The notes under the pieces were generated by a model, which saw only the letters and a program-made list of their open reading frames with translations, had not been told where the DNA came from and did not search any database. A program made the position numbers and the translations under genes. DNA of 64,000 bases from Octopus sinensis (lineage: Eukaryota): NCBI RefSeq assembly GCF_006345805.1, contig NC_043005.1, positions 20,708,001 to 20,772,000 on the forward strand, in the 5' to 3' direction. Shown here piece after piece: positions 2,176 to 62,400 of this stretch. How positions within the stretch are numbered: position 1 is the first letter of the stretch; each line of letters starts with the position of its first letter.

Positions 2176-2346
2176 TGTTTTCCAAAGTGGACTGTGGACA
2201 GCCAAAAGACATTACTGGTGCTTCAAAGTCCTATAAAACCACTACCTATAAATCTAAAGTAATCTACACTTGTCCAGAAGGAGAAAAATTAAAATCGATA
2301 TGTGAAGACGACAATAAATGGACCCCAGTAGCATCTTCTTGTAAAG
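2176..2346 (+). CDS. Exon S1, Sushi/CCP domain (171 nt)
   Basis: ttccag|TGTTT...AAAG|gtaatg; [57 protein letters not shown], matching C-x-x-P...Y-x-C-x-x-G...C...W...C. Confidence 0.9.
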
Positions 2347-5300
2347 GTAATGAAAATAGGCTCTCACTTGTTGCTTGTGTCTATGTAATTTTGTTTTGAT
2401 TTTTGTGTTATGTATTTTTGTCAGAGGAAGAATTGCTGTGTCCATGACAATTTCCATTGTGATAGTGGTTGTTGGAAAAGAGAAAAGTTATCCTCAGAGC
2501 AAAGAGCACTTCAAATGCTTGCAACATTGCAACAGATTGGGCTTGTGAGTGTTACCCAAGGGCCAGATAATGCAATTAAATTGGGAGATGATTCATGTGT
2601 GCCAAACAAGCACAAGAACTGTGGAATCTTGTACCTTCCTGAAATTTCTATGGAGTTGCTATCAACCAAATTTCATGCACACGGCTCAGATGTGAAGCAA
2701 ATTCTTAAGCATGCAGACTGAACTCTACCCAATATCCCATTGTTGTTAAGCAAAACTATTATGTCCACAGTTATACCTCACTTCATCTTGACATTTTTTC
2801 TCTAATTTCTCACTTGACCTTTCTCATCCATACTTTGTGTCATCATCTAGAATTCTGTATACAGTAATCCCTTGCCATATTGCAGTACACCTATTGTGAT
2901 TCACCTATTGCAGTTCACCTATCATGGTTTATAATTTAAGCTTATGTCAATTCCTCTGTGGTGTTGTTTTGCATTTATAATAAAACAAATATATACAAAT
3001 TATAAAGTAATAAAAAAGAATATGCAATATAGTACTGTTTTTACTTCACAGATTTTCACCTATCTCAGGGGGTTTAGGAATGTAACATCCACGATAGTTG
3101 AGGGACTACTGTAATACAATGCACTGAGTTATTCTTTAATATAATTCAGAATTCAGGATGCTGTACATTTCAGATGAGATAGAAAAGGGCCAAGAAATCT
3201 GATGCTTTGCTGCACTCAAGAAAATGTATCAACCATAACAGATGTTTTAAAAATGCAAATGAAAAATAACCTGAAGTTAGAAGTCCCTGTCTTCTGACCT
3301 TTGAACTTCATCCACTGCACAACCTCTATCACTACAGCTACCAGACAGAGGAAATTTGGCTTCTTTACTTAGTTAAAGGAGGGTGTGGGGCAATCATCAT
3401 GATGGACGGATTTGTCACACACATAACAGTCACAGTTTGACATATCTTTACAAATCAGCAATGCATGGACAATGAACATGTGCATGTAAAATGGTTTTGA
3501 TGCACTGTGCACATCTTGGACAACACTGATGGCACTTCCATGACTGTAGATTTTACCTTGAACCAATTGACTTCCAAGAACTCCAGAAAGTTGTCCATCT
3601 TAGTCCCTGATCATAATCCTTGACCAAAAAGATCTTTGAAACAAACTTGGCAATTCATTTTCTTCAATGCACTGAGCATCCTTGAGAATGGTACTACTCA
3701 TTTTCTTCAGTTCACTGAGAATTCCTGAGTATTTTGGTACACTAGCTTATAACAGATTGCTAGAGTGGAACACCCACTAATTCTATTGCCGATGTTAGGT
3801 TTCATTTTGTGTACTTTATTGTTTGTAATCCTTAGGATTACATTAGATAATATGGCCATCCTTTTTTATGATAGTTGGATGGAATTGGGGGAAATTTTGT
3901 TGATAATTCTAACATGTTGGGTGCCTATATTACAAGGTCCTCCTCAGTGGCTGGCCACAGTAAATATTGAGCTTTAATATTCCAGGTTAACAGACCTGAC
4001 ACAACTCCTCCCTGCTCCTCATCCACACTATCATCATCATCATCATAATCTTCATCATCACAATCATCAATCATCATCATCATCATCACGTTTAATTATA
4101 TTGCTACCTGATCAAGGTGAATGTGGTGGACAACACTTAATCTGATGTTAATATGTCTATATATTGCAGTCAGACAACGTACCAACAGGTTGAATGGTGA
4201 TTGGCAGTGATGAAATAGAGGAGGTAAAGGAATATGTCTACCTGGGACAGGAAGTGAATATGTGCCGAGATATTGAAAAGGAGATCTCACGGAGAGTAAG
4301 GACCGGATGGAAGGCGTTTAATGGCATAAGTGATGTGCTCAAGGGAAGGTTGGACAGGACCACCCGCACCAACCTCATCAACAGTACAGCTCTACCTGCA
4401 ATGTTATATGGTAGTGAAACATGGGCTACCACTTAGAGAGAAGAGCAAAGACTGGTAATGGCTCAAAGAGCCATGGAACGGTCAATGCTTGGTATCTCGT
4501 TGAGAGAGCACATCAGTAGCGAGATCATCAGAAAGAAGTCTGAAGTGAGGGATGTCATCACAGAGTATACACGCAACAAGTTTAGATGGGCTGGACACAT
4601 TGCCCGGCTCACCGATAATCGGTGGACCCGCGCAGTTGTCGAGTGGTACCCACACGAGTGGAAACGACCATCCGGAAGGCCTCCACGACGGTGGAGTTAT
4701 GATTTCAGGAGGACAATTGGGATCACGTGGATGAGAAAGGCATGATCCAGAGAGGAGTGGACAGCATGCTGTGACCAGCGGTGTCAAATGGACGCCCGAC
4801 GGACTGGTCGGTCAAGGTTATCAAGATGATATTGCAGTACCAAATACATTGATCCACAGTTGCTAAGACTTGGCTTGGGCTATTTTAACTTCACAAGCAT
4901 TGTAGGTATTGTGGCCTGTGTGTTTCATAACATAGTTCAAATTTTTCTGTCATGATTAGCATATAAAGATGAACGTATCAGTTTGTATATACATTGTATA
5001 TTCACTGTTTTGAGACATGGCCAAACATAGTTAAAAAAAATTAATGAGATTATATGATATTTACCTCTTCTTCAAAAGCATTAACAATCTATGTACTGTA
5101 ACCAAACTTAAACACAGAATCAAACTCTGATCATTGACTTACACAACACTATCAATGTTTTTATTGACAGAACAGCTATGGGAAATAGGGTGGAGCAAAA
5201 AAATGCAACTTTTGAAATTGGTAATCAAGAATCAATATTTTGTTGTGAATTATGGTTAAAAGAAAGGTGTATAAAGAACTTTGTGGTTAGATATTTTTTT

Positions 5301-8300: not shown

Positions 8301-11300
8301 TGCATGGCTTTGTGTTTGTATTAGAAACCATTATTGTAAATATTGTTAATATCAACAATAATTATATTTCTTGTTAAGGGTGCTGTATTTACAGAATCAT
8401 TAGATCCTCAGACAAAATGTATGGTGGTATTTGTTATGGCACTTCAGCTTTTGATTTCAAATCCTACTAATGTTAATTTTGCTCTTGCAGGGCCAGTAAA
8501 TTAAAATAACAGTTAAGTGTAGAGGCATATTTGATTAACTTCTACCTAAAATTTTTGCCCTTTCTATATTAGAAATTATTATGATTGTTATTGTTTTTGT
8601 CTTTTATATTCATCTAAATCTTACTTCAATTTCAGTCACTGCGATGCATTTTGTGAAAGTCACAGATGCAATTCTGGATGTAGCCGGGAAATCATTGGTT
8701 GAGGAAAATGTAACCACAGATGCCTGTGCTGAAAAATGTTTGTCTGATCCAAATTGTTTAGCATTTGAAATAACTAAAAGAGGTGGAAAATGTTACTTAA
8801 CAAATAAAACTGCAGCCTCCACCAAGAAAGTGAAGTCAGACAAAAGCAGAGATTATTACCAACGAATAGAACGTAATTATTCTTTGTATTTTATCATTGG
8901 ACTTCTTTTTCCTCTTTTTCTAAAATTTGTAATTCCATTTGTACTTTATAGTGTATAGACAACCATTTCTGTAAAGACATTGACAGGTTTACCTATGAAG
9001 GCAGGCATAGGCATGTTCCTGAGAAAGAAAAAGAAATATTAGTAACTGTAAATACTGTGAGGGCAATCTCATACAGACTTTGTTCATCTTGAACAATTTT
9101 ATGCATGTTTACAATCCATTGTTTTATGTCAGAAATTAAATTCTTGTTGTTTGCCTTAAACCTGAATAATTGCATCAGCTGTAGTGGCAGTAGTAGTAGT
9201 AGTTTCAAATTTTGGCCAAATGACAGCAGATTGAGTCAATGTTAATTGATACAATCAAACCTAATTCTTGTCTGGTATTATATTGTATCAACCCTGAAGA
9301 AATGAATGGCAGTGTTTGAGCTTATAATGTAATGAGCTGGAAGGAATACCACAATGTGACATGGATCTACACATTATCATACCACTAGTTGTTGTTCATC
9401 TGATATACAAAATATCAGGAAAAGAGATGCCAGTTGATGAAGTTGCATATCTCCTATAAATTAGCATTGTTACTAGGGCTGGGTATCCTTTCTATCACTA
9501 ACCATTATACCACATATAAAGAGTACATTTTATCATGCTTTTGGAGTTAGAAAAGTTCTCTGCAGTAACTGAAGAAATCACTCAACATAAAATAAGTTCC
9601 TATTCAGAATAGTTCTATGATTTAAAAACAAAATGTTTAACAATTTCACCCACTTTGATTAGGAGGATTTTTTTTACCTTTCCTATCAAAATCCTTCCTT
9701 CTCAAAACCCTGGATATTGGGAAATTTGCTAGGTGTAGTGATTTCTCAGTATATATATGAGGAACTATAATTCGTCTAAAGTCACAGACTCCTCTGCGGT
9801 ATTCTGGATACTTTCAACAAATTTAAGTACATTTACAGCTCAGGTTTATACAGAGACAGTTATCTAGCAATTTCATGTCATGTAAATAGCCATATCAAAA
9901 ACAGATTAAGGTAAAAATTTTATTTTTAAAAAATGATTGTTACCTTGTTACCAACAGTTGTTAGAACGATTGTTAACTACATTTGACTAAGTGGACATTA
10001 TTTTAGATTTGAAGTACATTTTAGATACTGTGATTTGAAGGTATGTAAATAAAATTGATTTTACCTCAACTTGTAATCGGGTATTGCTGGCAGATAGATC
10101 AGTTCCTTACCCGTGTTGTCACAATCTCTGTATCTCTATGATTGATGTCTGTCACTGCTAGCATCCCAAGGAAAAACAAATCACAGGGAAAAACTTTTCT
10201 TCTCACTTGCCGATGTGACATCATCTGTTGTTGCTTCAGGTCTTCCTTCCACCATATACCCCACTGATCCAAAGATCACTGCTCTCCTGTTTTGTCTCGT
10301 AATTGTCCATCCACCTGGTGTGGGGAAAGATGGGGTGGGCGATGCTCCCTTAGAGATCTCCGTAGGGTCTCAGGGCTGCCTTCCCCCTCCTCTTCATCAT
10401 TGTAAGAGCTAATCACCCTTCAGATATCCAGGACGTGACACAGCATTCCATCCACTGATACATTATTCAGAGTACTGATCGCTGTCACCTTTCCTTTTTC
10501 CACTACGTTGTGCACTGAGAATTCGGGGTTTCAACCACCTGCACAAATGTAATCCCTTCCACCTCTTGCTGCTGCAGCACAACGCACGGGTGTCTCCATT
10601 TCTACCAGAATATGGCCCTGTGCGGGAACGACTCTTTGGCTTTCTCTACCCAAGGTAACATATTATATTAGAAGCCTGCCTCCATTGGGGAGGTTCATCC
10701 CCTCTCAGCCATGGCTTTAATCATACGCTGGTGCCGTCCCACAATCCCATTTCCATTTGGTCTGAATGCAGCTTTGAAGAAGTGTCTTGTGCTCCATTTT
10801 CCAAGCATCTCTCTCAGCTACTGTGAGTGAAAAACTGCTGTTATCCATCAGTAGCTCATTTACAGACCTCATTTCCAAAAACATCTCATTCGGCACCTCT
10901 GCGACCTTGGCAACAGTCTCTGCCCTGATTTCTTTCCATATAGCCATTCACCCCAGTCCACAGTCGACCATTTCAAGGTACACCTTTTCCCAGTAGTATG
11001 TCACATCAATGACTAGCCTCTTCTATTCTTACTTTACCTAAATCTTTCCTAGTTCATGTGTGTTTGGGACAGGATTGATTGGCACCTGTTGCAGATCCCC
11101 ACTATCCTCTGAAAGCTCTCCCTTGTGACATCAGGGTTGACCATCCTAGCCAAAAACAATATCTTGTTGACCTCCATATGGTGCCTGTTGTGCAGTCTCC
11201 TTAGTTCTGTGCCCTCCAGCCAACAAACTGCTACCACCCCATCCAGAACATCCTCTACTGTTTCCAACCAATACTGTTTCACTCTGGTTAGAACACCTGC

Positions 11301-14300
11301 CTTATTCTTTTCCAAGGGCACAAGCACTGCATACAGCTCTGGAGTGAACTTGGCAGTTAGCTCCCTCAGGATTCCCAGACAATGCTTGATCACCATTTCC
11401 ATGGCCCCTTTCATATGAATCCTCTTCCAGTTAGTGATCACTGACTTCATCCACCCTAGCACAGTGGCAGAATCAGTTCAGATCTTGACTGTTTGCAGGC
11501 CCCATCTCAATACTATGTTGATGCCCTTCAATACAGCATCCAGTTCAGCCACTCTGATGTGGTTGCCGTCGTCCTTCTTCCTAAGCCATGCTGTGTCTTC
11601 CACCTCGACACCTCCTGTTTCCAGCATGACTCCCAATGCTATGCTGCTTGCGTTGCACCATATGATCCCTTTCTTTATATCAGGCACATACCAGCCACTC
11701 CTCACTGGATCCTCTGCTCACACTCTCTCCAAGACCTCTCATCATTACCATCATCTCTCTCCTACTTTATCGCCTCAGTTCACTCTTTCTGTTCACCTTT
11801 TGAGACAGCTACATGCTGTTTGGAGCCATCCTGCAACCGGGTAATGGCCCACCAACTTCCCACATATTGACAACAGCTCTTGCCTATTCATATTCTGATT
11901 CAAATCTGGGATCTCATTTCCTCTGTGAAGCACATACTCTTTTAAGCCTGTGCCTCAGTACCTCACTTGTCACAAAGCGATACTCAAGATGTAGTGGCAA
12001 CAGTGATGATGGATACAAGTGGGACAAAGAAACAGGCATGAAACAACAACAGCAAGAACCTGGTGAGGTGAATGACCAAGGGACCAGCACCGTACCTCCT
12101 TCTATACCCTCTGGTAGTTTTGCTGTCAGCCCAAACCTCCTAAGATGGCCCATTATTTCCTCTGCTAATACCACATTCACACCCACTAAAATATCGTCAA
12201 TACATGAACTAGTAGCCTATTCCACTTAGGCCTCTTTGCCCAAAACCGTCTCGAGGACCTTTGCCATGATCTTTAGCACCGAACTCAATCCAAAACCTAG
12301 TCTTGTTTGGCAATATGTTTTTCCCTGCGTTTTGGTTTTCCTTGGGATGCTAGCAGTGACAGACACCTGTTGTGGAAATAGAGAGGTCATGACAATACAG
12401 GTGAAAAACCAATCAATCTGCCCAGCAGTATCCATTCCGAGTCAAGGGAAGAACAATTTTATTTACATGCCTTTGTAGCAAGTCTTAATAAACCTTTACC
12501 AGCAGTAATATGACGTCATGGTCATGTTGGCCGAATAGGTATAATTATTAGTTTCCCATTGGTTAAAATTACTGCCTATATTTGAATTCTAACTTTCGTC
12601 AAAGAGAAATCTTCCTTCTCAATTGCTGATGTGATGTCATCTCTCGTTGCTTCCAGTTTTCCTTTCACCACAGATACTCCAAGGGAAAGCCTAACAAGCA
12701 GAATAGACACCTTCATAGGAATTTCAATTTCTATCCCCACACTATAATAAGAAACTTAGTAACTGGCATTACTAAAAACTCTCAGAGTTATGCTCAGATA
12801 GAGATAATTTTGACAGCAATTTCATGCTTCAAAACATTGCTTACTTTTTATTTGGCCTGATAGTTTTTTAGCATAAGATACCCTTCTTAAACTTCATGTA
12901 AATTCTGGTATATCATGAGACATACTTGGAACTTCACCTTCATGATTCAGTTGCAGATTATGCATTTGTATGTCCCTCTTCTGACACTGTTTTTGTTTAT
13001 GATTTAATGGCCATAACACTTGACACATTCATTGACCTTATAAAAATACATCATTAGAAGTGGGGTTATATAAGTGTGTTATGTGCACCTTAAGTTTTGA
13101 AACACATTTACAAATAAATCTGAAGATGTGTTACAATTCACATGAATCCTTAGTTGTCATTATGGATGTTATATGATATTCAGTGTGTGAGTTTAAGAAT
13201 GTGTTTCTTGTCTTTTTTCTTTTATATTTCTCCAGCAAAAGATGAGATTCTTAAATTTAAAAGCGCTATGATACCAGGAGAGGATACTTTTGAACGAGTG
13301 ACTAATGTGAGCTTAAAGGAGTGTGCTCAAGCTTGTCATCAAAATCCAAAATGTAATTCTTATGAGTACCAAGAAAAATCTAAGTTCTGTGATCAAAGTA
13401 ATGTGACTCACTTGTCTCATGACCTTCAACCCAGCAAATGGGGTTGGGATGTATACATCGTTAACCCAGGTCAGTGGTGTTTGCATTTCATTTTTTTATG
13501 TGTGCTTGCATGTTAGTGTGTTTGTTTGTATTGTCATATATGTAATGTGTGTGTGTGTATACCGAATGTGTACCGTTGGCGACTTTTTTACTCCGTCTTC
13601 CCTTCTTTGGATCTTTCCTTTTCCTATGTTTCTGATGAAGAGTTCCGCTCGAAACATTAAACCCTCCTTCTTTCCTTCTTTCCTGAGCGTCCAATAACAC
13701 TATACTTGTTCCACATCCTTGCATTGTTGTTTTCTCTTTGTATTTTCATGGATTAACTATATATATATATATATCATCATCATCATCATCATCATCATCA
13801 TTTAGCGTCCGTTCTCCATGCTAGCATGGGTTGGACGGTTCAACTGGGGTCTGTGAAGCTGGAAGGCTTCATCAGGCCCAGTCAGATCTGGCAGTGTTTC
13901 TACGGCTGGATGCCCTTCCTAACGCCAACCACTCCGTGAGTGTAGTGGGTGCTTTTTACGTGCCACCCACACAGGTGCCAGACAGAGCTGGCAAACGGCC
14001 ATGAACGGATGGTGCTTTTACGTGTCACCAGCACGGGGGCCAGGCGAGGCTGGCAACGGACACGAACGGATGGTGCTTTTACATGCCACCGACACGGGGG
14101 CCAGACAGGGCTGGCAAACGGCCACGAACGGATGGTGCTTTTACGTGTCACCGGCACGGGGGCCAGGCGAGGCTGGCAACGGACACGAACGGATGGTGCT
14201 TTTACATGTCACCGACATGGGGGCCAGACAGGGCTGGCAAACGGCCAGGCTGGCATACATATATTCATCCTGATAAATATAATATATATATGTATATATA

Positions 14301-17300
14301 TCTATCATCATCATCATTATTGTCATTTAACGTCTGCTTTCCATGCTGGCATGGGTTGGACGGTTTGACTGAGGACTGGTGAACCAGAAGGCTGCACTGG
14401 GCTCAGTCTGATCTGGCAAAGTTTCTACAGCTTGATGCCCTTCCTGACTCCATCCACTATGAGAGTGTAGTGGGTGCTTTTTACGTGCCACCGGCACGAG
14501 GGCCAGTCAGGCGGTTCTGGCAATGACCATGCTCAAAAGGTGCTTTTTGTACATGCTACCTGCACAGGAACCAGTCCGGCAGTACTGGCAATGACCACCT
14601 TCAAATATTGTTTTTCACATGCCACCAGCACATGTGCTGGTAAAGCGACGCTGGCAATGATCATTCTTGAATAGTGCTTTTTACATGCCACTAGCTTGGG
14701 AGCCAATCTGTGGCCCTGGCAACGATCATGCTTGGATGTGCTTTTAGCGTTCCACTAGCATGAGTGCCAATCAGGTGGTACTGTTATCGGCCATGTCAGC
14801 GATTTTGATTTGGTTTCATTTGCCTTAATGGGTCTTCTCAAGCAAAGTTTATTGTCCAATGAATGAGGAGTACTCATAAGTGGGTTGGTTACACCCCATG
14901 CTTGGATGTGCTTTTAACATTCCACTGGCATGAGTGCCAATTAGGCAGTGCTGTCATTAGTCATGTCAGTGATTTTGATTTTGATGTATGTATATATGTA
15001 TGTATATCTACATATCTCTATCTGTCTGTCTATATTGCTTATCTGGGTCCAGCATTTAAAAGATTGACATGAAGTAAAGCTTCTCTTGGACTTGTGACTG
15101 CTACATCACATCACATTTCAAAGACTATGCACTTGCAATCTAAGAACAAGAGATTTCTATTGAATGCCTAACCAACAAAAGGGAGAGTGAAGCACTTGGA
15201 CTTCCAAGTTGCAGCCAGAAATGTAGATTATGTCCTATTTCTGTGGAAGACACCACATGTGTGATTAGCAGCTGTCCAAAAATCTCATCAAGGTATGACC
15301 TCGCTATACGACATGATGTCGCCAAAACAATATATGTAAAATGATATTCAGAAAAAAAAATGTCCTGGAATAAATATAGAGAATCCCCATGTTATTGAAT
15401 ATGTACACATATATCATCACAAGGAATACTGGTGGAGTATTTCCATCAAAACATCTGTCGAGTGTAAACATAACACGCCAGATATTGTTGTTTGAGACAG
15501 ACAAGGAAAGTATGTACCATCACAGAGGTTGGCTGTCCTGCTGATGTGAATAATGCTTTGACAATCAGAGAAAGAAGATAATTATGGGCAACTGTTTCAA
15601 AACCTCAAACTTCTATATCCAGATTACAAATTTAGGTTTATACCAATAATAATAGGATAACTTTTGTAAGTAAAAGACTGTCAGTCTGGAAAGCTTGGAT
15701 TTTCAGAAAAAGAAATCAACCAACTTTCACATTACAAATACAATCTGTTAGTTGAACAGTAAAACTTTGCAAGAATTTGTATGTATATACGTACATACAT
15801 ATGTTTGTATGCACCTACTTATCTGCCTATCTAGCTACCTACCAACATTACCACCTACCTATGTACATGCATCCATACATACCTACGTACACACACTTAC
15901 ACAAACACACACACACACACACACATGCACATATTGTTATGTATGTTTTTATATTCTAGTGCAGATTTCTCAATTTGATTCATTCATGATATTTTATTTA
16001 TTGTAATGTTATTTTCTCCTTATTCTGACCTACCTCTAAACATACAAGCACAATTAGTGTCAATTTTTCTTTTCAATATCAGGTTTTTCACAAATTGACT
16101 GTGGACCTCCTAAAGAAGTTGATGGTTCAGTGAAGTCCTTTAATTCCACCTTGTATAAATCTGAAGTCACCTATACTTGCCCAAAAGGAGAAAAACTGAA
16201 GTCCATGTGTGAAAAGAACGATGAGTGGACTCCAGTAGTATCTTCTTGTAAAGGTAACATAAAATGCTTGTTGTCTCTGTGTATGTTGCTTCTGTCCCTT
16301 ATTTCATCTGTCTACATAAATTTGTTTTACACCAGTCTTTGATGTGAAGTAAATTCTTAACTACACAGCAAAAAACTCCATGCAAAACCACATTGTTGCT
16401 TATTAAACTTGTTATCTCCAGAGCTATGCCTCATCTCATCTTGGTCGTTTTCCTCTTAATTTCTAACTTGAACTTTTGCACCCATATTTTTGTTATCACC
16501 CAAAACCCTGCACAATACCCTCTTCCCAACTTTACCAAAACTTGGTTATCCTCTGGGAAAATAAAAAAATAAAAAGATGATGATGATGATTCTGCAATAC
16601 TCAATGTAGCAGGACTTCTATCTAGGACAAATTGAAGAAACCCACCACAAAAACATCACCCTGAATTCCATGGATAAGTGTGCTCTCCAGTTATTGTTCA
16701 ATTTACTTGTTTATGCCCTGTGATTTTCATTCATGCAGGCCCTTTTCGCTACTTTTACCTTACTTTCAATACTACCCTCGAGGACAGTGTCTTCCTTTCT
16801 ATTCTCACTTTCTTTGCTAGGGAAACTTCAAAAATACAAATGTGGGATTAATCAAACAAGAAAGTCACTGTCATCTGATCTATCAATCTTATCCATCTTG
16901 ACTAAAAATTCTACATGACAGTACCCCTGCATGGCTGAAGTTCAATAACTGAAGCAAGTAAAAGATAGAAGATAAGAAACTATGTTGACCATCCACAATG
17001 GGGTATTCACAATAGCTGGTCCATGATAAAATTTGAACTTAGTATTGGAGTCTAACAGATTTAAATGCTGTTATTATCTGGTTCAGGTCATAGAAAAGAT
17101 GGTGGACAACACTTGGTTCAATGTTAATGTATTTATTACAATAATAAACACTTACATTGACACACAAATGCTTAGGTTGGGCATGAACTATGTTCATGTC
17201 ACAGGTCTAGAAAGGAGGGTGGCCAAGAGTTCCATGACATAGCTTTATTTTTTCTGTCATAACTAGTTTATTGAAAGATAAAAACACTATTTTGTAATGT

Positions 17301-20300
17301 ATTATATATTTATTGTTTAAGCACATCATCAGGCATAAAAAAAAATCAATGAAATTGTGCAATAATCATGTCTTTCTCAAGAGCACCAACTCTCAATCTA
17401 AAGTGAACTGAATTAGGCTGAAAATCAAACTCAGTTAATGGATTCACATCTTTCTCCATTTGCACTAAACAAATAACAAGGGGAAAATACATAGGTGAAC
17501 TTAATGCATACAAAATATATTAAAAAATTGGCTATTTACTGAATGACAATATTATATTTGATTAGAATTTCTCAGCGAAATCCTTATGTTAATAACTTAT
17601 TCTGCTCATGAGATTCAGAAGTGACAAAATTATAAAAACAATCACTTTTTCTTCAGCTCACTAAAAGTATAAAATTCATTAGTTAAAATTTCTTATCTTG
17701 CTACATTAAGTTTTGTGTGTATATTCACTACATATTTATGTTTCTTCACTAGACGATGAAAATTAATTTATTTTAGTTTTATAAGTCAAAACATTGTAAA
17801 ATCACTTAAGTCAGGGGTCATAGTCCTTTTCATGACTAAGTATAGTTAGTGTCATCCATTTACATACTGGCTTGAAATCACAACAGAATTTATTTCACCT
17901 TTCATACTTCTGATGTGCATGGAACAAGCATTAGTTATGTACTGAGATTGGTATATTTTCATGTATCTTCACTGCAGAATGTGTCATCTTGTGTTTAAGT
18001 TAGAAACTATTATTAACAATAATTATCGGTATTCTTGTTGTGAAGGGTGATGGATTGCAAGACTCATTTGAGCATCAGACAAAATGTGTTGTGGCATGTG
18101 TTCTGGCTATTTTACTTTTGAGCTTAAATCCTTCTGATGCAAACTTTGCTCTTCTTCAGCCAATAAAATGCAGTGCCTGTCTTGTGTAGAAGCCAATTTA
18201 ATTGATTTATTCCTACCACTAGGTTTGGCCTAGTTTCTATATCACAGTTTATTATTCTTGTAATATTTCATTGCTTTAAATTTTATTTTAACTCTAGATG
18301 CTCAGATCCATTTTGTGAAAATAAAAGATGCAGCTCTGGATGAAACAGGGAAAACATTGTGGAGTAAGAAAAAAGTAACACCAGATGCATGTGCAGAAAA
18401 ATGTTTTTCTGACAAAAATTGTTTATCATTTGAAATAACTAAAGGAAGTGGACTGTGTTACTTATCAAAGCAAACTGCAGCTTCCTCCAAGAAAATAAAA
18501 ACAGACAAAAGCAGAGATTACTACCAACGAGTAAAATGTAAATATGTTTTGCATTTTATTATTGGATATTCTTTTCCTCACTTTCTGATTCCATTTGTAC
18601 TTCATAGTATATAGTATATAGACAACAATTTCTGTACAGACATTGACAGGTTTATCTATAAGGACAGAAATAAGTAGTATTAAGAACTGTTAATACTGTC
18701 AGGGCATTCTAAAACAATTTTTGTACACTTTGAACATTTAAATGCATGATTTTGATTAATTTTCTTTATACAGAAAAGCATCTTTTGTTTACTAAAACCT
18801 AGACAGTAGTAATGGCAGTAGCAGTAGTAGTGGTACTGGTAGTGTAGTGGGAGTGTCATAATAGCAGTAGTAGTAATATTATCTACTGCTTTCTCTTTAT
18901 TTTTGTATGTAGATGTGGTTTAGTGCTACTATTGGATAGTACCTCAAGACTTGTAGCTGTCGTACATAATCTGATATACACAAATTACAGAAAAAGTAAT
19001 GCCAAATAATGTGGTTGAGTATCTCCTATATTTTGGCATGGTTATTATGGCAGAATTCTCTTCCTGTCATTAACTATTATGTCACATTTAGAGAGTACAT
19101 TTTCCCATGTTACTAAAATTGTTTGATATGAATGAAGAATTCTCTTGATGTAAAACAAGTTCCTATTTAGAATAGTTCCATTTTATGAGAACAAAATAGC
19201 CAAGAATTTCACTTAGCTTATTTCAAAGATGTTCTTTATTCCTGAAATATTTCCTTATTCAAACTCAGAACATCAGGGGAAATTCACTAGGCTTAGAGTA
19301 AACCCAAAATTAGAAGACTCAGGAATACTAGGATGTCAATACAGTAATGATGAATTTTTCTCAGTTCAAAAGAAGGCAAGCCATTTCCATACGTATATCT
19401 ATGAGGACCTTCAACTGGGCTGAAGTTGCAGACTTCATTGCAGTCTTTGTACTAGTCACCCACAAGAACTTTAATCTGAGCATGTTTATACAGAGACAAT
19501 TGCCCTGAAATTTCAAGTAATATGAATGGCCATGCCATGAATATATATAAAAGAACTTAAAAGGAATCTCTAAGATGTTTGATTTAAACTAACATTTTAA
19601 CCATGTTCAACTAAATGAACATTACTTTAGTCTTGAAGCCAGGAATAAGATAAATAATACGCCTACAGAAAGCCTAACAAGGAGAACAACTTCCAGATTG
19701 TATTATGAAACATAGGAGCTGGCTTTGCTAAAAGAATCTGCAATTTATCTTCAAATAGAAAATAGAGACACTTTTGACAATATTTTGTGTATTACAACAA
19801 GGTGTTAGCTAGGATTGTGTTTATATAGAAGTTAGCATAAACAGATTATGCTCCACCTCCAAATCCAAAGAAAATTAAGAAAAGAAAATAAGTCAATCCT
19901 CTCTCCAGACTAAATGTTTCTATAAGTACTGCTAGAAAGTTTTTATCCTGCATTAGACACTGTTTCTCAGGTGCACATAAGCATGATAAACTGAGGAATG
20001 TGCATAGTATTATCTTGTTTGTTATTACGTTTTGGCTGATGTACTCGTAATAACAAACAATCTTGTTTGTTATTACGTTTTGGCTGATGTACTCTCCAAC
20101 CTTCATCAGGTGTTCTGGTGGAATTTCGAATCCAATCCTTTATTTGACTAATAGGATACATTGTTCCGATTCCTAAGGTATGTTGCTGATGTTATTTTTC
20201 TGTCGATATTATTTTTCGAGTCCCTACCTGTGATTGAACTTAGAATCTGAGGAATTTCAATGAATGTGGGGCACAAAATTGGTTCAGAGGATTCAAAGAA

Positions 20301-22421
20301 GGTGACACCAGTCTTGGAAATGAACCAGAGTCAGTGAGACCTTATGTGTGGAAGATGAAGACTTACTTGATGTGGGTTAACAGCCTAGCACAATCACTTG
20401 TACATTGCTGGCAGAAACTAGTCCTTCACTAACCATCATCAATCAACACCTCCATAAGCTCACCTCTGTGAATAGATGCTGTTAAGAAGATCCTCATGAA
20501 CTGAACAATTACCAGGCTCAACAACGTGTGAACATTTACAAACAACTGATGGCAAATCCACAAGATCACCATTTTTTTGCATCAAATTGTAACTAGGAAT
20601 AAAAATAGTTCTATTTCCATAATCCTAAGAGAAATCAGTGGCTTCATTTTGGCCAGGCTTTAGAACCTGTTGTCAAACAAGTTTGAACAGAAGGTTGTGT
20701 TGTGTGTTTGGTTGAATTTTGAGAGAATGTTACATTTTGAGCTTGTCCCAGATGGTCGTGCTGTGAATGCTAACCTTTATGATCAGTAACTACAGTGAGT
20801 ACATGATGCTTTGAAAGCCTACTACAGTTGACAATGCACACACCCACAGCACAACAGTACTCCAGAACATACTGCCATGGTGAACAAGTGCAAACTTGAG
20901 AAACTTGTGGTGTTGAAAGTGTTGCCCCACACTGACTACAGTCCAGACCTTGCACTGTCAGATTACCATCTTTTCTGAGTCATAGCTTATTTCTTGTATG
21001 GACAGAGAATCAATAGTATGGATGAAGGAAAACAAGTGTAAGAAATTTTTTGCCTCTACGTGAGCCAGGTGGTATAAGTATGGAATTAAGCTTCTGACAC
21101 AATAATGGCAACAGACAATAGAATATGATGAGATATATTTTGATAAATAAACACTTTTTGTATGTAATTTATTTGAACTAATATTTAAAGCTTAAAATAC
21201 ATAAAAAGTTTTGACCCAGCCTGGTATACACATGTACATATGTACACATGCATGCATACAGACAGACAGACACATGCAGACACACAATGGGCCTCTTTCA
21301 ATTTTCATCTATAAATCCACTCATAAGGCTTTTGTAGGCCCAAAGCTATTGTAGAAGGCACTTCTCAAACTGTCATGCAGAACAAAACCTAGAACCATGG
21401 GGTTAAGAAGTAAACTTCTTACCCCACAGCCACACCTATACTTGTTTGTAACACATTTCTCATTTGCAAAATTATCCTCCAGATGCTTTACAATATTTAA
21501 TACATACTAGTATGTATTAAGGTGGATGGGTGAGTATAAAATGTATTTTTTGTTTTCTTTTTTTCAGCTGATAAGCCTCTTCAAATTAAAAAAGTTAGCA
21601 TACCAGAGAAGGATAATATTGGAAGTCTTATGAATGTGAACTTAAAGACATGTAATGAAGCTTGCCTTCAGTATCCAGAATGTAATTCTTATGGGTACAA
21701 TGAGAAAGAAAAACTGTGTTACCTGAGCAATGTGACTCAGTTGACTGCTGAACTTAAACCAAACAATGGAGGTTGGGATGTATACATTATTAAACCAGGT
21801 CAGTAGTGTGTTTCCATTTAATTTGTATATCTGTCAATGTGTACTTGCACATATGTATATGTGTGTGTGTATATATGTTTGTGTGTGTGTGTGTGCATAC
21901 AGCAGTAGAGGGAACCTGTGGGAGATGTAGACCCAGACCCAGGAAGACCTGGGATGAGGTGGTGAAGCATGACCATTGAATATTGGACCTCATGGAGGCG
22001 ATGACAAGTGACCGAGACCTTTGGAGATATGCTGTGCTTGAGAAGACCTGGCAAGCCAAATGAGGCCTTAACTGTGGTCTATGCCAGTACAGCATAACTG
22101 GACCATTTAAGAGTACCCTTCAATCATTGGGCAATAAACTGTGCTTGTGGAGACCTGTTGAGGCAAGTGAAGTCATTGTCATGGCCAATGCCCATACTGC
22201 TTGACTGGTGACCGTGCCAGTGGCATATAAAAAGCACCATTCGGTGACATGTAAAAAGCACACACTACACGCTCGGAATGGTTGGCATTATGAAGGGCAT
22301 CCAGCTGTAGAAATCTTGCCAGATCAGATTGGATTCTGGTATAACCTTCTGGCTTGCCAGTCCTCAGTCAAACCATCCATACCATGCCAAAATGGAAAGC
22401 AGATCTTAAACGATGATGATG

Positions 22422-22457
<36 letters not shown>

Positions 22458-24158: not shown

Positions 24159-24228
<70 letters not shown>

Positions 24229-24423
24229 TCGTCTGGCACCCGTGCAGGTGGCATGTAAAAAGCACCCACTACACTCACGGAGTGGTTGGCGTTAGGAAGG
24301 GCATCCAGCTGTAGAAACACTGCCAGATCTGACTGGGCCTGGTGCAGCCTTCGGGCTTCTCAGACTCCAGTTGAACTGTCCAACCCATGCTAGCATGGAA
24401 AACGAACGTTAAACAATGATGAT

Positions 24424-24478
<55 letters not shown>

Positions 24479-24966: not shown

Positions 24967-25043
<77 letters not shown>

Positions 25044-27828: not shown

Positions 27829-27873
<45 letters not shown>

Positions 27874-48500: not shown

Positions 48501-51500
48501 TTATGGTGATGTATTCACAGAATTATCCTAGCATCAGACAAAATGTGTAGTGGTATTTTTCTAATTCTTTAACTTCTGCCTACAAATCCTGCAAGTGATA
48601 ATTTTGCTCTTCCAGGGCCAATAAAATGTAGGGACCAGTTTAATTTTATTAGTCCCTTCAGGGCAAAATATATTAATTAATACATACCTCAAACTTTTGG
48701 CCTTCTTTCTATGTCAGAAATGTATAGTATTGTTGTTATTTTTCATTCTTCTCAATTATATTTTGACTCTAGATTCTCAGATCCATTTTGTGAAAGTAAA
48801 AGATGCAGCTCTGGATGTAACACAAAAAACATTATGGAGTAAGAAAAAAGTGACAACAGATGCATGTGCTGAAAAATGTTTTTCTGACAAAACTTGTGTA
48901 TCATTTGAAATAGAAAAAACAAGTGGACTCTGTTACTTATCAAAACAAACTGCAACATCCTCCAAAATAAAAACAGACCAAAGCAGAGATTACTACCAAC
49001 GAGTAAAATGTAATTATTCTTTGTATTTTATTATTGGAATTCTCTTTTCTATTTTTTTTTTCTGATATTTCTGATTCCATTCCTGCTTCATAGTATATAT
49101 ACACAACCATCTCTTTAAAGATATTGAGAAAGTTACTAATATGGACAGACATAAAGACATAGCTGCAAGAAAAAAAGAAAAAACGGAAGAAAGCAGTACA
49201 AAGAAGTGTAAATACTGCTAGGGTATTCCAATATGAACACTTTTAATACTATTTTCATTTTCTTTTATCTTCTTTGAAGTGTTTTTACCTGTTTCAATCA
49301 TTAAACAGTGGACATACTGGGGCAATGTCTTGCAGGGCTCATTTGAAGGAAACTCCAGTACTATTTTTTAAAACCTGGTACTTATTCTATCAGTCTGTAG
49401 GGATGTAAAGAAGCTAATTCCGGCTGTCCAGCAGTGAGGGTGGGGTTCAAACTCATACGCAGACACACATATGCATATATAGATGAATAAATAAATAGAT
49501 ACTGTAGAACATCCCACACAAGCTGCACTAATTTTTGCCTAGTCTTCAAAGGAACATGCAGTCTAGCATTGTCCTTATGTAAGATGTCACATTTTTGGTT
49601 GCCTTCTTTAATTGGTTTTTGTTGGGAACAATAATAGTCTGAATTTAATGTCTGATTTTGTGGAAGTAGCTCAGAATGCAAATGCCTTCCAATCCCACCA
49701 GATACAGAGCATCACCTTCCTTGAATACAGACCAGCTTTTGGAGAGATTTAAGGCAGTTCATCTCATTTTCCCCAAGATCTTTCTTGTTTTATGCTGTAA
49801 ATTATCCATTTCTCATAACACATGATCATTCTTTTAAAATGTGGATCCTTCGTGTTTCATCTGAGCAGCGAATCACAGATGGAAATGAACTCTATAAAGT
49901 TTTTTTTCTGTTAAGTTATGAGGCCTGTAACCATCATAACATTCCACATAATCAAGTGTTTTAAATGCTTTATAGCGCTCATGTGAGATATGTGGAGAAT
50001 CTCTGTGATGTCTCAAATCATATGACATGGATTATTATTTATTAAAACCTAATTTTGTTCATTATCAATGACTGTAAGCCTGCTGGAACATTCACCATTT
50101 TCCTGGTCAAAATTTTCAGTTCTAAACCTATTGAATCACTCATAAACAGTACTTTTATCTATGACATCATTTCCATACACAACACATATCTTCTGTGTTG
50201 TTTATGTAGTGTTTTAGCCTTTCCAGAAATAAAAGAGCATTAAATGATGAAAATGGATTTCATTTTCCTTCATTTTCAATTTTATCATAAAAACAGTGGA
50301 AGTAAATAATCCACACAACATTCAAAAAGAAACATGAGTTAAGATCTCCACTTTCTGAATATATACATATCTTATATGTTCTTGTCACATGATAAAATAG
50401 ATCACATAATTAAGCATCACCAATTGAAAAATGCTATGCACATTTTTACCAACCCAATATATATAAACATACATACATATACATAAACACATGCACACAC
50501 ACACATATTCTCCAAATCATGGGGACTCCTTTGAAGAGAGCCTATAAAGATGGAAGAAGTGTTATCCAGCATTGATGGCAGCTTTCACACTCGTCTTTAA
50601 CGAGACTTCGACCTTCCTAACATTGAATAGCCTGGAGGCTGTCTCGTAGGTATGTCACTGCATGAACAGAAGCAAACAGCATTTCTGTTTGATCTCACAA
50701 ACATGCTTTTTATGGAGCTAATAGTGTTCCACACCACCAAGGGGAAAAAGTATACTGGACCTCTGCTTCACAAATAATGTGGTGCTCATCCATAATGTTA
50801 AGGGAACACTGACAGTTCTCTTATAACTTAATAGAACTAATAACGTATGGTCCACAGCACTCATCTAGAAACATTCTTAGGAGTATCTCACACTTTAGTA
50901 CTAATGGGAGACTGGAATAGTATTTTGGATGCAGAGAGGGACTGTTTTGCTTTAGTTCAAAGCAGAAATGGGTGTAAAAGCCTCGGAAACCTTCTCAAAA
51001 ATTTCCAGCTAGGACTGACTGGATTTCTCTGATGTGCATGTGGGGACATGGAGCAACTGCAACATGTGATCCAGATAATATTTAGATAGAGTATTTGTTA
51101 GGCTAGAAGATAAAGAATAATGTAGGTTGTCCACAATTTAGATTGATCAGCTGCACAGATCACAGGTTTGTGATATGCACATTCAGTTTAGATAGGACGC
51201 ATAGATAAGGGCCCATTTAATGGAAGTTCAATGCATATGTAGTGGAAGAAATTTGTAACGATAAAGTTTTTGGTTCTTAAGAAGGCTGCAATTCTCTTGT
51301 TTGGGGTCACCAGTTGTAACAGGAGAAATTAATTAGTAAAGAATATTATAATGGGAGTCGGGGTCACCAATTTGTAATGGTAGAAATTGTATTTGTAATG
51401 ATTAAAATTAATTGATAAACAATATTACGGAATGTCAGTCAGCAATTGTAATGATAGAAATGTGTTATTACAATTGCATGTTGTAGGATGTGAAAGATGA

Positions 51501-54500
51501 ACAATGCATGAAGTTTTAAGGAAATATTTATTTACCGTTATAAGTTACAATACCTATCCTCAACAGGCAGGTTATGATAAATCCAAAAGCATGCGAAGTA
51601 AAGTTTGTGTTCTCTTCATTGTTTAGTAGTAAATACATAGAGAGATAGAATGATATTGTTAGAGAACAGAATTAGAGCTAGAGAGAATTGTAGGGTGTTG
51701 TCTGACAGTTGCTGACAGTAAACTTCATTTCTCCCTCTTACCAAGATTGTAGCTGGTCAGCCAGACTTTGTTGTCATTGAGTTGTCACTATGTGACTGAA
51801 TCCGTTGAGTCTTCACCGACTGTGACTAACTGATTTTTGCTTGGTGTATTCTTGCTTATATAACTATCCAGAAGGATAGAAATATCATTGAGAACAATAG
51901 ATTTAGTTGGTGGTCTTGTTATCTCTATTCTAGCTTTTGGTGAAGTAGAAGAGGTTAGAAAGGGACAGGTGGTGAAGACATTATTTCGGGCTAGCCAAAA
52001 GTATCTGGAAAGTGTAAAACTTCTGTCAGAGAAAAACCATTGTTCCATCGTGAGAAAAGAGCTGTTGCAGTGTTAATTTAAATTTGACTGTGGTGGATCG
52101 AATCCACTTCATGCATGTAAGATCCACTACACATAATTACCAACATGCAAAGACTACAGGGACTGGATTAGCAAACAAGTTAAGTGGCAGTTAATGGGGG
52201 CTGTCATCAACAATCAGTGGTGGATTTCCCTGAAGAAGGTAGTTAGAGTAGAATTAATAATATTTAGCATTGGCAAGAAATAGATTAGAGGGAGCACTAG
52301 TTGTCAAACTAGCAGTGGCAATTACTAAAGGCATCATGACTGATAAGTTAGCAGTGAGAATGTGGCGAAACATAAAGGATACATTTTCAGACCCAGTGCT
52401 CATGCACTAAATTGTGAAGGAACTAAAGCTGTCCAGTGGGCCTGAACAGTAGAGATGGGATGTGGCAATAAATCATGATCAGGTCTTTGATGGATCAAAA
52501 CAGGCTTGTGCTAATTGGTTTCAAGCAGATGTGTGCAGCTTTCCTGCTGAACTTTGCATGGCTGTTTGGAGAGAGTGATGGGTTGATAATGGTAGCAGGC
52601 TTTAGTTCATATCTGGATGGCCTACCTTGCCTTTTTTTACTGAATGCCAGATTCTGCAGAAAGCCAATAATGGCTGAAATATGGCAGGCGATGATTCATT
52701 ACACAAGTCGCATATCACTCGGTTCAGATGATCTGCCTCGTGAATTCTATGTATTCAGGCCATATTTGTTCAGTAGTTTCTTTGCAGACATCTACTGTAA
52801 CTGGCAGCTGAATGGGAGAATTCCTAGAGATGTTAGCTGGGGTGTGGTAGCATTTGTGAGAAAGGATGCTGACAGTAAGGATCTGCCAGAGAATTTTTGA
52901 CCTACAACTCTGCTAAACCCAGTTTAAGTTTTTAGCCAAGGTTTTAGTGAAAAGGTTGGTGCTTGTCATTGGTAGTCTGGTCAGGGAGCAAAAAACATGC
53001 ACAAAACCAAACAAGTCAATCCACGACAACCTCCACCTTCTGTGATACATCATAGATATGAGCTGGCAGAACAGTTAGCACACTGTATGAAATGCTTAAG
53101 AGAATATCATATGTCCTTATGCCTATTCTTCCTTTTGGTGTCGATAAAATAATTGCCAGTGGTGCACTGGGGTCAATGTAATCAAATATCCCCTCCCTCA
53201 AAGTTTAGGTCATGTGCCTGTAGGGGAAAAAGATTATAATTATTATTTATCATCATAACTCATTATAATCATCATCATCATCATTATTTTTTCATAGATA
53301 TTTTTAAAATATTTGATAATTAGAAGTACATATAAGTGAAGTTTTGAATAAAATTTGAGAAAACTATCTTGTGATTTGTTGTGTACAGGGACAAGCAAAT
53401 CCATCCAGAAAATAGTTTTTCCAGCATAAGACTCCCTTCTCAGAAGTAATGTGAATTCTAGTACATCATGAGACATGCTTCAGACTTTGCCTCGGAGCTT
53501 TGGTTGTAAAATATCGATTTGTACATCCCTCTCCCTATGGTGTGTTTTCCTTTAATACTGAATGGTCATAACAACACTTGATACATTGGTGGATTACCTG
53601 TTCAGGAGGGTGTTGACCCTACAAAATTTCCTCATTGGAAGAGAGATGTTCAAATGCATTGTCTTGAGCCTAATTATTGAGACAAGGTTTCAAATATGTC
53701 TGAGAATATTCTACTAGTTGTATGCATTCTGATTAGTGTGTCATTTTGTGAATCAATTATTTCTTGATAATAAATTGTCCATTTACAAAATTATACCCTG
53801 CTTGCTTTAAAATATTTATTATGAGTGTGTGTTTGTGAGGGTGTACAAGTATATACTGTATTTCTTGGTTTCTATTTCTTTCCCCAGCTGACACCCCTTT
53901 GAAGCTTAAGAAAGTTAGCATACCACAGAAGGCTACTTTACAACAGCTTAAACAGAAGACCTTAACTGAATGTAATGAAGCTTGTCAACAATATGAAGGA
54001 TGTAATTCTTATGAGTACAATGACAAGGATAATCTGTGTGGTCTGAGCGATGTGACACAATTGACTAGTGAACTTAAACCCGACGATGGAAATTGGGATG
54101 TTTATCTCATGAGCCCAGGTCAGTAGAGTATTTCTATTTTATTTATATGTTCTAAATCCTGTATGTATTTACATGTATGCATCTGTGGGAATATAGTATA
54201 TACTGTGTACAGTATATACAGAATAGAGTATATACAGTGCTTGTTTGTGGTTCAGCATTTGCAGTCCCGGTTATTCGTGGGACCGATAATTGTTCACAGT
54301 AATCACCACATATTTGTGGAATTGTAAATATTGTCTGTGATGTTTTATTGCATTTTCCATGGTAATATATACTTTCTCACACTTGTTATGGCTAAATCAT
54401 TAATAATATTTTATCGTATTTGCCAATTTTCTGGACACCCCTTCACAGCTGAAGATCCCTCTGATTAGAATTACTGCACATCAAGTCACTTGATGTTTTT

Positions 54501-54658
54501 TTAGATACAAGTACGCTGTATCTTGTATGTCTTATTCTTGCTTTCAATAAAAGCTTGCTAATTCGTATAGCGACATCTATTTATATTTCATGCATACAGT
54601 CTCTCTCTCTCTCTCACTGTATTTGTCTCTCAACAACAACCTATCAATGTAGTGAAAG

Positions 54659-54690
<32 letters not shown>

Positions 54691-59368: not shown

Positions 59369-59408
<40 letters not shown>

Positions 59409-62400
59409 GAAAGAAAGAGAGACTAAGATTTATTAATATATACAGTATTTAAATGTGAGCTAGTTTTAATTTCAAGCTGATATCCAAATACTCTGTAAAT
59501 TTGAAGTTAGTTACCTCTCACTGGACAGAGGACATACTTTGTTGATGCTACTAATAATGGAACTATAAATTGTATTTATATATATTTGTGTGGGTGTTTG
59601 GATTTGTGCATGTGTTTGCATACACACACATATTTTTACATATGCGTTATATATAAAGACATATGCACAAAGATATGTGTATATCTATACATGTAGTTAT
59701 ATATATATATTGGGTCATTGCATAAATAATGGTCTCTTTTTTCATACTTCTTTTATATTTCAAAATTAAGAGAAAGTTCTTTTTCTATCTAAAATATACT
59801 CTCCTTCAGCTTGTAAATTTGCAAGGCCCGTCTTCCAAAATTCACTTTTCTGTGACAAAAGATACTCCTCCAGTACTGTTCTCACCTCATCCACAGAATG
59901 CATAACTTTTCCATCCAAATGACTTTGAAGATTTTGGATTAACTGATCATCAGATTGGGTAATGTCTGGTGAATACGGTGGCTGGGGCCTCATTTCCCAT
60001 TCAAGCTGCTCCAACCTTTGGAATGTCATCCTTATAGTATGTGGGTGAACATTTCCCTGATGGAAGAACACCTTTCGTCTTGAAATCCAAAACCATTGTT
60101 TTCCATCTAGCGCTGACTTAAGCCGCTCAAGCTGTTCATAGAAGTTCTCCTTTGTTATCATTTGCTTTGGGTTTAAAAGTTTAAAGTGGACTAAACCTTT
60201 CATATCACGCCAAACATAACAACATTTTATGTGGGTGAAGACCTTGTTTAGCTTAGGGTACTGGTGTTTCTCCTTTCCCTATCCCTGGTCTTCAGCACTT
60301 AACATTTTTATAGATAACCCTTTTCTTGTCTCCAGTCATATTCAGTCCAAAGAAGGTTCATTCGTGAGGCATGACAGCAAACAGCACACTTTTACTCTCT
60401 GAGTGCAATTACTCAGAAAGTTTGTGTAGTACCCATTGACCCAATTTGTTGAATTTTCTAATGGCCTGCAAGTATCACTGACTGGCTGAAGAACCAAATC
60501 CAAATTTATTTGCTTGTTCCTCAACTGTTACAATGGGATTTTGTTCCATTATGGTTTGCAGGATGTCCCCATATGTAACTGTAATTAGTGGGGCCCTGGG
60601 ATATGTAACACACTCTCTAAATACCAATCTTGCAAAATTAGGCTTGTCAAAACCAGGAAGGAGAAAGCCAATTTGAAGACTACAGATCCAATCCATCATT
60701 GGAACAGTAACAATCTGTAAAACTTTCCTGAAGTTTATCATTTAAATATATATCAACATGTCTAAAAATGCAAGTATATGCATGAGAATACATGCATAAA
60801 ACAAAACATATGAATCTGCACATATACATACATTCACACATACATACAAACAAAAATACCCAGTTGTTAATGTTGAAATTCCAATGAAGGAGTCTTAGAT
60901 CCAAGTCAGAAACTGGTTCTTTCTCTGTTGGCAAGAAATCTTGAAATAAAACTTAACAATGACATACATAAATATATATATATGCCTATTTCTGTCTGTG
61001 TACATGCTTCTTCAGTGTGTTTCAGTCAATATCTTTATTCTAAATTTGTCATTATCGCCTCATCCTTACACTTCTCCTAACATATAATTACCATTGATAC
61101 CATCTTCTCTGTATCATTTCCAGTGTTATCCAAAGTGGACTGTGGACCACCAAAAGACATTGCTGGTGCTTCAAAGTCCTATAATAGCACTACCTATAAA
61201 TCTCAAGTAATCTACACTTGTCCAGAAGGAGAAACATTAAAATCGAGATGTGAAGATGACAATAAATGGACTCCAGTACCATCTACCTGTAAAGGTAATG
61301 TAAAGAGGCTCCCTCTTGTTGTTTCCAACTACATTATTTTTTTTTGTGTGTGTGTTAAGTGTTTTTGTCAGAGGAAGAAATGCTGTGTCCATGACAATTT
61401 CCATTGTGAATTTCACTGTTGGGAAAGATAGAAGTTAATGTCAGAGCAGAAACCTCTTCAAATGCTTGCAAGAGTATCGGCTTTGTGAGTGTTACTCAAA
61501 GGGAGGATGATTCATGTTGTGCCAAACAAGCACAGGAAGAGTGGAATCTTGTCCCTACCTGAAATTTTCATGGAGTTTTCATCAACTAAATTTCATGTGT
61601 AAGGCTTAGATGTGAAGCAAATTCTTAAGCACAGAGAACCCTGCGCAATATTCCATTGTTTTTAAGCAAACTATTATGACCACAGCTATAACTCAGCTCG
61701 TGTAATTTTTTTCTCTAATTTCTCACTTGACTTTTCTCATCCATACTTTGTGTTATCATCTATTATTCTGTACAATACAATGCACTGAGTTTTTTTACTA
61801 GAATTCAGCAATCCTCTGAAACAGACTTCCGATGCTCAAGTGATATTCTATCCAGTCCATAATCCTAAATTATAACAACACAAATAATAATAATGATTCT
61901 TTCTAATTTGGGAAAAGAAAGCCAATAATTTTCTATATGTTGTAGATTAAGTTCCATTTTGTTGTTTTCGTATAGATTATTGGTTTGAGGATGTATCCAT
62001 CGGTTACAATATAATTAAGTTGACTAAATATGTTTGGGTGTGTGATATGTATATGTCTTCCAATTAAACGAAGTCCTTTTTGCATCCTGCTGTTGGTAGA
62101 ATGAAAAGAAAAGTCAAATTCATTTTTGTGGAGAAATGTAAAAATGATGAGTTACAAAGACAGTTTCAACGAATTCTCTTTTTATTTCAAGGATATATGC
62201 TATTACATGTAAATACATCAGGAGTAATCTCTCTTCGTCAGTGAAAGTAACTTGAAGAGTATCATATTGTAGAATGTTATTTCTAGGTTTTCGTCTAAAA
62301 GTTTGTCCATAAAGAAGTGAAAGGAATCATATTGCTTATCAAGTCCATTGAAACTACACTTGAGAAAGAGTTTAGCTTTATGACTTATGGTCATTATTGA

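Follow-up and report, generated by a model that had tools for sequence, protein, structure and literature searches.

Exon array in the window

The 64,000-nucleotide (nt) stretch of Octopus sinensis DNA analysed here (NCBI RefSeq assembly GCF_006345805.1, contig NC_043005.1, positions 20,708,001 to 20,772,000 of the forward strand; hereafter the window) carries 14 plus-strand exons that belong to a much longer array of single-domain exons found in Octopus genomes. Two window exons served as seeds, and AG..GT frames were then listed. The exons occur in the order S1 A1 B1 S2 A2 B2 S3 A3 B3 S4 S5 A4 B4 S6, where S encodes a Sushi domain and A and B encode two types of PAN domain, giving S-A-B three times, then S-S-A-B and a final S. 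All 14 are bounded by GT-AG and are in phase 1-1, with 969 codons in frame and zero stops, and the acceptor of a 15th exon (A5, starting at 63998) lies at 63996-63997. The Pfam cut-off was passed for Sushi by all six S exons and for PAN_1 by all eight A and B exons. A six-frame scan of the window with profiles made from the whole array returned the same 14 exons and three weak matches (at most 5.2 bits), and no extra, leader or broken S, A or B exon. As every exon is one domain in phase 1-1, any block of exons can be duplicated in frame. The exons and the repeated flanks are as follows.

2176..2346, +, S1, Sushi, 171 nt, phase 1-1 (PF00084, 25 bits; 98% to domain 15 of O. vulgaris CAI9728790)
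8636..8872, +, A1, PAN type A, 237 nt (99% to domain 16 of CAI9728790)
13236..13469, +, B1, PAN type B, 234 nt, B1 class
16083..16253, +, S2, Sushi
18298..18537, +, A2, PAN type A, 240 nt, probable conversion with A4 (90.7% alike within the exon, 69.8% upstream of it)
21568..21798, +, B2, PAN type B, 231 nt
31949..32119, +, S3, Sushi
32680..32919, +, A3, PAN type A, 240 nt
36155..36388, +, B3, PAN type B, 234 nt, of the non-B1 type and an exception to the hexamer alternation
42191..42361, +, S4, Sushi, opening the S-S pair characteristic of each unit
44722..44892, +, S5, Sushi
48773..49009, +, A4, PAN type A, 237 nt
53888..54118, +, B4, PAN type B, 231 nt, closing the unit when counted from S1
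61124..61294, +, S6, Sushi, S1 position of the next unit (91.7% nt to S1; 56/56 amino acids identical to O. sinensis XP_036361599)
60962..61772, +, regions flanking S6, with homology to 2014-2859 on both sides of S1 (84% in 847 columns, offset 58,948)
63472..64000, +, intron end and acceptor of A5, homologous to 8121-8636 before A1 (83%, offset 55,351)

A preliminary description of the window had proposed nested duplication on the basis of motifs shared by alternate exons, and all of these motifs were found. A1 and A3 start with V-T and end in C/gt, A2 and A4 start with D(A/S)QIHFVK and end in T/gt, B1 and B3 are 234 nt, B2 and B4 are 231 nt with an S-D-x-P start, and S2 and S5 have a common protein motif (10 protein letters not shown). 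Overall likeness is nevertheless low for two of these pairs, S2 and S5 reaching just 57% in protein (joint lowest among S pairs) and A1 and A3 76.9% in nucleotides, less than A1 and A2 (81.2%). Hence, the shared motifs are real but selective.

Extent and history of the 13-exon repeat

The S-A-B triplet is supported as the basic level of the array, and the window itself contains the start of a second, larger unit. S6 is closest to S1, at 91.7% as compared with 73-79% for the other S exons, and the 150 nt upstream are 95% alike, against 44-62% elsewhere. Likewise, the intron end before A5 resembles that before A1 (85% over 250 nt, as compared with 63-68% for A2-A4). The upstream flank of S5 is the least like other S flanks (43-50%). 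In the intron before S4, positions 40727-40864 are 75% like 60904-61036 upstream of S6 and are separated from S4 by a 1-kb insertion, which places S4 in a B-to-S type intron. The recurrence had been described as a period of about 58.9 kb. This holds at S (offset 58,948), but the offset is 55,351 at A; the period in bases is therefore not fixed, owing to insertions.

For the sequence past 64000, public protein models were used, gathered by homology searches, a profile-library search and cluster look-ups. In O. vulgaris these are CAI9728789, CAI9728790, CAI9728792, CAI9728793, CAI9728795, CAI9728796 and P0172 (a working label), the last being placed between CAI9728790 and CAI9728792 by its match to LOC128248840. 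In O. bimaculoides they are LOC128248837-841, LOC106869402 and an older model, LOC106869390, and O. sinensis contributes four. The seven O. vulgaris models hold 296 S, A and B domains in 20,402 amino acids (aa), a lower bound, since CAI9728794 is not included and models skip exons; CAI9728790, for example, has in full only one of the four window A exons. Domains 14, 19, 23, 47 and 51 of CAI9728790 are A2/A4-type exons that the model truncates at one and the same point, some 22 residues in, which is probably an artefact of annotation at an internal site resembling a donor. The O. bimaculoides models map onto those of O. vulgaris largely in order at roughly 70-95%, with LOC128248840 matching only P0172. 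The long many-unit array was found only in Octopus.

These models confirm that the 13-exon block recurs, in both O. sinensis and O. vulgaris, and show that the single recurrence noticed at first is one of many units in an array of about 300 domains. O. sinensis model XP_036361599 opens with S6 (56 of 56 residues, 100%) and goes on with A1-like (82%), B1-like (88%) and S2-like (87%) domains, the order predicted by the preliminary description, and the same continuation is present in CAI9728790. The latter, of 4,470 aa, includes the window exons at 95-100% together with five further units built alike, one preceding the window exons and four following them, so that SAB-SAB-SAB-SSAB occurs six times with some exons missed by the model; the pattern is continuous in LOC128248839 and LOC128248841. 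Outside the unit of the window, the best match of CAI9728790 domains was the window exon at the same position for 43 of 48 full domains. Class trees that included O. bimaculoides domains gave a corresponding result, the number of changes being 3 for the four B classes (the minimum; 19.6 when shuffled, with none of 200 shuffles as low), 5 for the four A classes (15.4 shuffled) and 7 for the five S classes (30.1 shuffled). These trees omit partial domains, O. sinensis sequences and O. vulgaris sequences near-identical to the window. An assembly artefact was rejected, as units differ by 4-28% and occur in three species. Judged by these sequence comparisons, the higher-order repeat is real and predates the split of O. 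vulgaris and O. bimaculoides. Summed read depth near S6 was 193, as compared with about 41-64 on long single contigs (run X2), a value that is not a copy number.

The intermediate step is less clear-cut. The preliminary description had a triplet duplicated into a hexamer and the hexamer duplicated again, and the result that it named as refuting this, in separate S, A and B trees, was obtained in part. In trees of window exons only, A2 joins A4, and S3 is placed beside S1 and S6 (89%), a weak S3/S1 link. As A1 and A3 are no closer than A1 and A2, the A split depends on A2/A4. These two are 90.7% alike in the exon and 69.8% upstream (p=1.4e-8 for exon versus flanks), the other five A pairs giving p>=0.02, and the exon-limited likeness is likely the product of gene conversion, whose pattern it has. 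With exons and 120-nt flanks combined, quartet sites favoured the grouping of positions 1 and 3 against 2 and 4 (59/27/28), also without the A exon (47/26/27, p=0.003) and in the 120-nt flanks alone (34/13/22, p=0.004). In larger trees, S1+S3 had support of 67/84 (a weak fit) and S2+S5 cost 10 log-likelihood units, while A1+A3 lay 0.68 units below the best tree (also a weak fit), with alternatives costing 17-20. B1+B3 cost 3.3 units, with p=0.32 in the approximately unbiased (AU) test, and is neither shown nor rejected; AU tests rejected no S, A or B grouping (mixture=False, 56-79 columns).

Several results weigh against a hexamer. The window-only B tree groups B1 with B2 and B3 with B4 (92% bootstrap), quartet sites in the B exons run 7/11/2, and once the flanks are widened to 250 nt and the A exon is left out, the quartet excess is gone (62/57/50, p=0.20). 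The B domains of the array split into a B1 type and a non-B1 type (Bn), and B3 is of the latter, next to the B4 class (FastTree 0.90), in a classification whose seeds were picked after the FastTree tree was seen. Elsewhere in the array B alternation is present. Two hexamers plus one S, SSABn-SAB1-SABn-SAB1, are found in CAI9728793, CAI9728795, XP_036361601 and the second half of LOC128248841, whereas SSABn-SAB1-SABn-SABn is the order in the window region, and units near the C-terminus are shorter, with 7-10 domains. A permutation test for even lags was positive for B in one of four models (XP_036361601, p=0.0012) and for A at p<0.05 in one of four; the negative B lag-2 results in LOC128248841, LOC128248839 and CAI9728795 also count against the hexamer, missed exons and phase shifts weakening the test.

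A 13-mer could alternatively have formed in this region with no hexamer stage, from the 10-exon unit SSABn-SAB1-SABn seen near the C-terminus plus one triplet, the alternating motifs being due to conversion. The type and position of B3, the window B tree, the short C-terminal units and the exon-limited likeness of A2 and A4 would all agree with such a route. It is made doubtful by the grouping of S3 with S1, the signal in the 120-nt flanks, the small cost of A1+A3 and the alternation of Bn and B1 in both neighbouring regions further along the array. The hexamer level is thus plausible but blurred in the window region; a hexamer stage probably existed, with B3 later overwritten there. The 10+3 route bears on history alone and would be consistent with a single giant gene.

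Duplication by unequal crossing-over would account for the levels described. An S-A-B triplet would have doubled into an (S-A-Bn)(S-A-B1) hexamer and the hexamer into a 13-mer with one extra S, which was then amplified; later conversion (A2/A4, probably B3) and turnover of units would have overwritten part of the hexamer signal in the window region. Turnover is visible between species. The same flanking units enclose three copies in O. vulgaris and apparently two in O. bimaculoides, and the B3 domains of the copies cluster according to species (support 90/73 and 94/77). Within CAI9728790, units 2 and 3 show 91-98% likeness at 6 of the 11 positions compared. The window is 98-100% identical to CAI9728790 from S1 to S4 and 95% for B4 and S6, a drop in sequence identity that points to exchange or a change in copy number among close relatives or haplotypes.

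The window also contains several repeats. A remnant of a mariner-type transposase (PF01359) lies at 59769-60278 on the minus strand, and 7364-8023 and 40914-41975, 71-73% alike, look like the same kind of element by sequence. A 492-bp repeat, 92% alike and in opposite orientation at 578-1069 and 27341-27832, has no Pfam match; it resembles the reverse-transcriptase end of a long interspersed nuclear element. It is adjoined by a 61-bp minisatellite family (1139-1512, 13948-14247 and 26914-27033). The B2-S3 intron includes three inverted repeats, 25326-25709/26362-26746 (385 bp, 98%), 28251-28355/28793-28897 (105 bp, 98%) and 23181-23284/23608-23711 (104 bp, 90%), possibly fold-back elements or elements like miniature inverted-repeat transposable elements.

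One gene or several

The models are named 'SVEP1-like', 'ADAMTS20-like' or 'uncharacterized' across the three genomes. In most of the 18 Octopus models the first residue falls within a domain, and several run past a splice donor into the intron at their end. A 222-aa C-terminal tail is present in CAI9728796 and LOC106869402 only, with a GON domain in LOC106869402, and no species yielded more than one GON end. Of the breaks between models, four (792/793, 795/796, 837/838 and 838/839) are spanned by a model from another species. These features suggest that the seven O. vulgaris models are probably pieces of a single secreted protein of Dumpy size, and the odds somewhat favour a single gene, split by annotation, that would encode a secreted, disulfide-rich protein of more than 20,000 residues ending in GON. 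The full reading, to which we assign a probability of about 0.5, is one unannotated gene with over 300 exons of one domain each, whose product would be a secreted Sushi-PAN-PAN filament of at least 2.3 megadaltons (MDa), with nested 3-, 6/7- and 13-exon super-repeats still gained, lost and converted between close species.

Other observations count against this reading. A break occurs at the same or nearly the same place in O. vulgaris and O. bimaculoides at three junctions (the start and the end of CAI9728790 and the start of CAI9728792), and these could be real gene ends. No signal-peptide exon was found in the 18 models or in the window scan. The units are joined by gene models only, and a search of sequencing runs listed no RNA match. 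Part of an S3-A3 query was found in 3 of 21 sequencing-run rows, and all three runs cover introns over 41900-61700; no exon-exon joint was present among the rows listed for them on that interval, which is silent on expression. Coverage of introns without exon-exon joints indicates that the three matching runs are DNA. The ratio of nonsynonymous to synonymous substitution (dN/dS) is near 1 for most A exon pairs (0.87-1.05), with little constraint beyond the fold, and the proposed function is read solely from domain type and composition.

A tandem cluster of several large genes of 2,000-5,000 aa each, with their own unannotated leader exons and a common repeat structure, is unlikely, though it is the better of the two competing gene structures. 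The annotation does have seven or eight separate models in O. vulgaris and at least six in O. bimaculoides, three breaks have about the same location in the two species, and no read joins the parts. Both annotations may share hints, so that common breaks need not be independent. Separate genes would each begin with a leader, but a hydrophobic N-terminus was found in none of the 18 models, the 5' end of the gene not being among the models retrieved. The run-through model ends, the single GON end and the four bridged breaks are further points against several genes.

A variable-exon array of the Dscam type, in which combinatorial splicing of phase-1 exons would yield many short proteins of immunity or adhesion with a constant GON end, is more improbable still. 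All exons are phase 1-1, so that any subset is in frame, and the C-terminus is single and constant. Between window paralogs dN/dS is 0.26-0.79 for S, 0.51-1.05 for A and 0.60-0.87 for B, and exactly four Cys are present in 405 of 408 full domains, with fewer in none. Almost neutral divergence of surfaces with fixed cysteines would suit this type of array; more generally, the Cys counts and dN/dS indicate that fold and frame are kept while surfaces drift. The mutually exclusive exons of Dscam lie in clusters of the same type, from which one is chosen per mRNA. In the octopus array, however, exon types are interleaved in strict S-A-B order over about 300 domains in two species, and no exon in the window is broken.

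Proposed product and related systems

If the single gene is accepted, the product may be a long, glycosylated, positively charged and multivalent scaffold in a secreted matrix or mucus. The A domains have a mean net charge of +6.8 and the B domains a mean of 1.4 N-glycan sequons. PAN pairs would bind acidic glycans, with Sushi domains as spacers, and selection would act mainly on fold and length and less on individual surfaces. The predicted model of XP_036361599 has a predicted local distance difference test score of 71 (about 80-93 over the first PAN pair) and matches apple-domain structures of factor XI, kallikrein, MIC4 and the galactose-binding lectin SML-2, with a low overall template modelling score, the match being at domain level only. 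A2 had no PDB match by sequence. The GON domain of ADAMTS9/GON-1 is described as acting in endoplasmic reticulum (ER)-to-Golgi transport (PMC3338439), and the octopus GON may help ER export. A secreted glycan-binding scaffold of many binding sites is proposed tentatively, from models and composition, and is the weakest step of the argument.

The database names do not fit the domain content. SVEP1/polydom has VWA, EGF and pentraxin domains with Sushi runs, and in ADAMTS9/20/GON-1 the GON domain is preceded by a metalloprotease and by thrombospondin repeats. Pfam scans of models P0003 and P0011, with precomputed Pfam lists for the other models, gave PAN, Sushi and GON and no VWA, EGF or pentraxin; LOC106869402 consists of PAN, Sushi and GON only, and CAI9728796 of S, A and B domains up to its 222-aa tail. 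Both assignments were rejected, since SVEP1 and ADAMTS20 have only Sushi or GON domains in common with the array, which includes no metalloprotease or TSP1. The two names are automatic misnomers. A 'svep' marker is given in two octopus single-cell papers and cannot be tied to this locus. Locus identifiers were unmatched in the supplementary files searched (other expression tables may exist), and no paper on this gene or its domain combination was found in the literature searched.

Smaller molluscan proteins share the domain types. Cuttlefish CAE1175485 (B-S-S-GON, 359 aa) has a B1-type PAN and a GON that aligns with that of octopus; small molluscan PAN/Sushi/GON proteins differ from the array in being a few hundred residues long, and are possibly fragments. 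In an Atlas search all matches were below 0.9, and the leads include molluscan PAN+Sushi and GON+PAN clusters. Argonauta hians GAB1601772.1 (P0043) is 356 aa long, starts much as a signal peptide would and has four PAN domains with a distant likeness to the A/B pair; it may be a secreted relative of small size or a clue to the missing 5' end. P0027 (293 aa) is 45% like the GON tail of the array and clusters with the cuttlefish entry GON-Sep-2, a name presumably from a salivary-gland survey, with no link to this locus shown.

If it is one gene, the product would rank with the largest known extracellular proteins, in the size range of Dumpy and nearing that of titin. From the sequences, a probable megadalton octopus protein has been hidden by annotation, in three genomes, as separate misnamed models. 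Its growth mechanism, by super-repeats, is already known from titin and nebulin. Drosophila Dumpy, described as a protein of 2.5 MDa and 800 nm with EGF repeats and a ZP domain (PMC5715762), is likewise a Cys-rich extracellular repeat chain, and would be of comparable size to the array if the latter is a single gene (20,402 aa, calculated as about 2.3 MDa). In the models scanned and the Pfam lists, however, the octopus chain is without EGF or ZP and ends in GON. The Dumpy/NOAH PAN-ZP type of apical matrix protein does not fit, as the C-terminus is GON without ZP or anchor; no hydrophobic stretch or membrane anchor was found in the two GON-ended models (CAI9728796 and LOC106869402).

The number of nebulin super-repeats is described as varying between species (PMC7754682), as does that of the octopus units (three in O. 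vulgaris and apparently two in O. bimaculoides). Nebulin differs in consisting of short actin-binding muscle modules rather than a secreted array of folded domains. In titin, domain groups are described as having arisen by serial nested duplication, with domains at the same position most alike and the central repeats most alike of all (PMC10665226). The A-band super-repeats of titin and the octopus array thus have in common a giant chain, nested duplication and position-wise likeness. Titin is intracellular, built of Ig and FnIII domains and matched in periodicity to the thick filament, whereas the array is made of disulfide-bonded Sushi and PAN domains, has units of 13, 10 or 7 and has no known periodic partner. 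With one exon per domain, introns that can still be aligned and a unit length that changes along the gene, the octopus array is an unusually readable record of super-repeats, covering their origin, overwriting by conversion and turnover between species, which in titin can be inferred from protein only.

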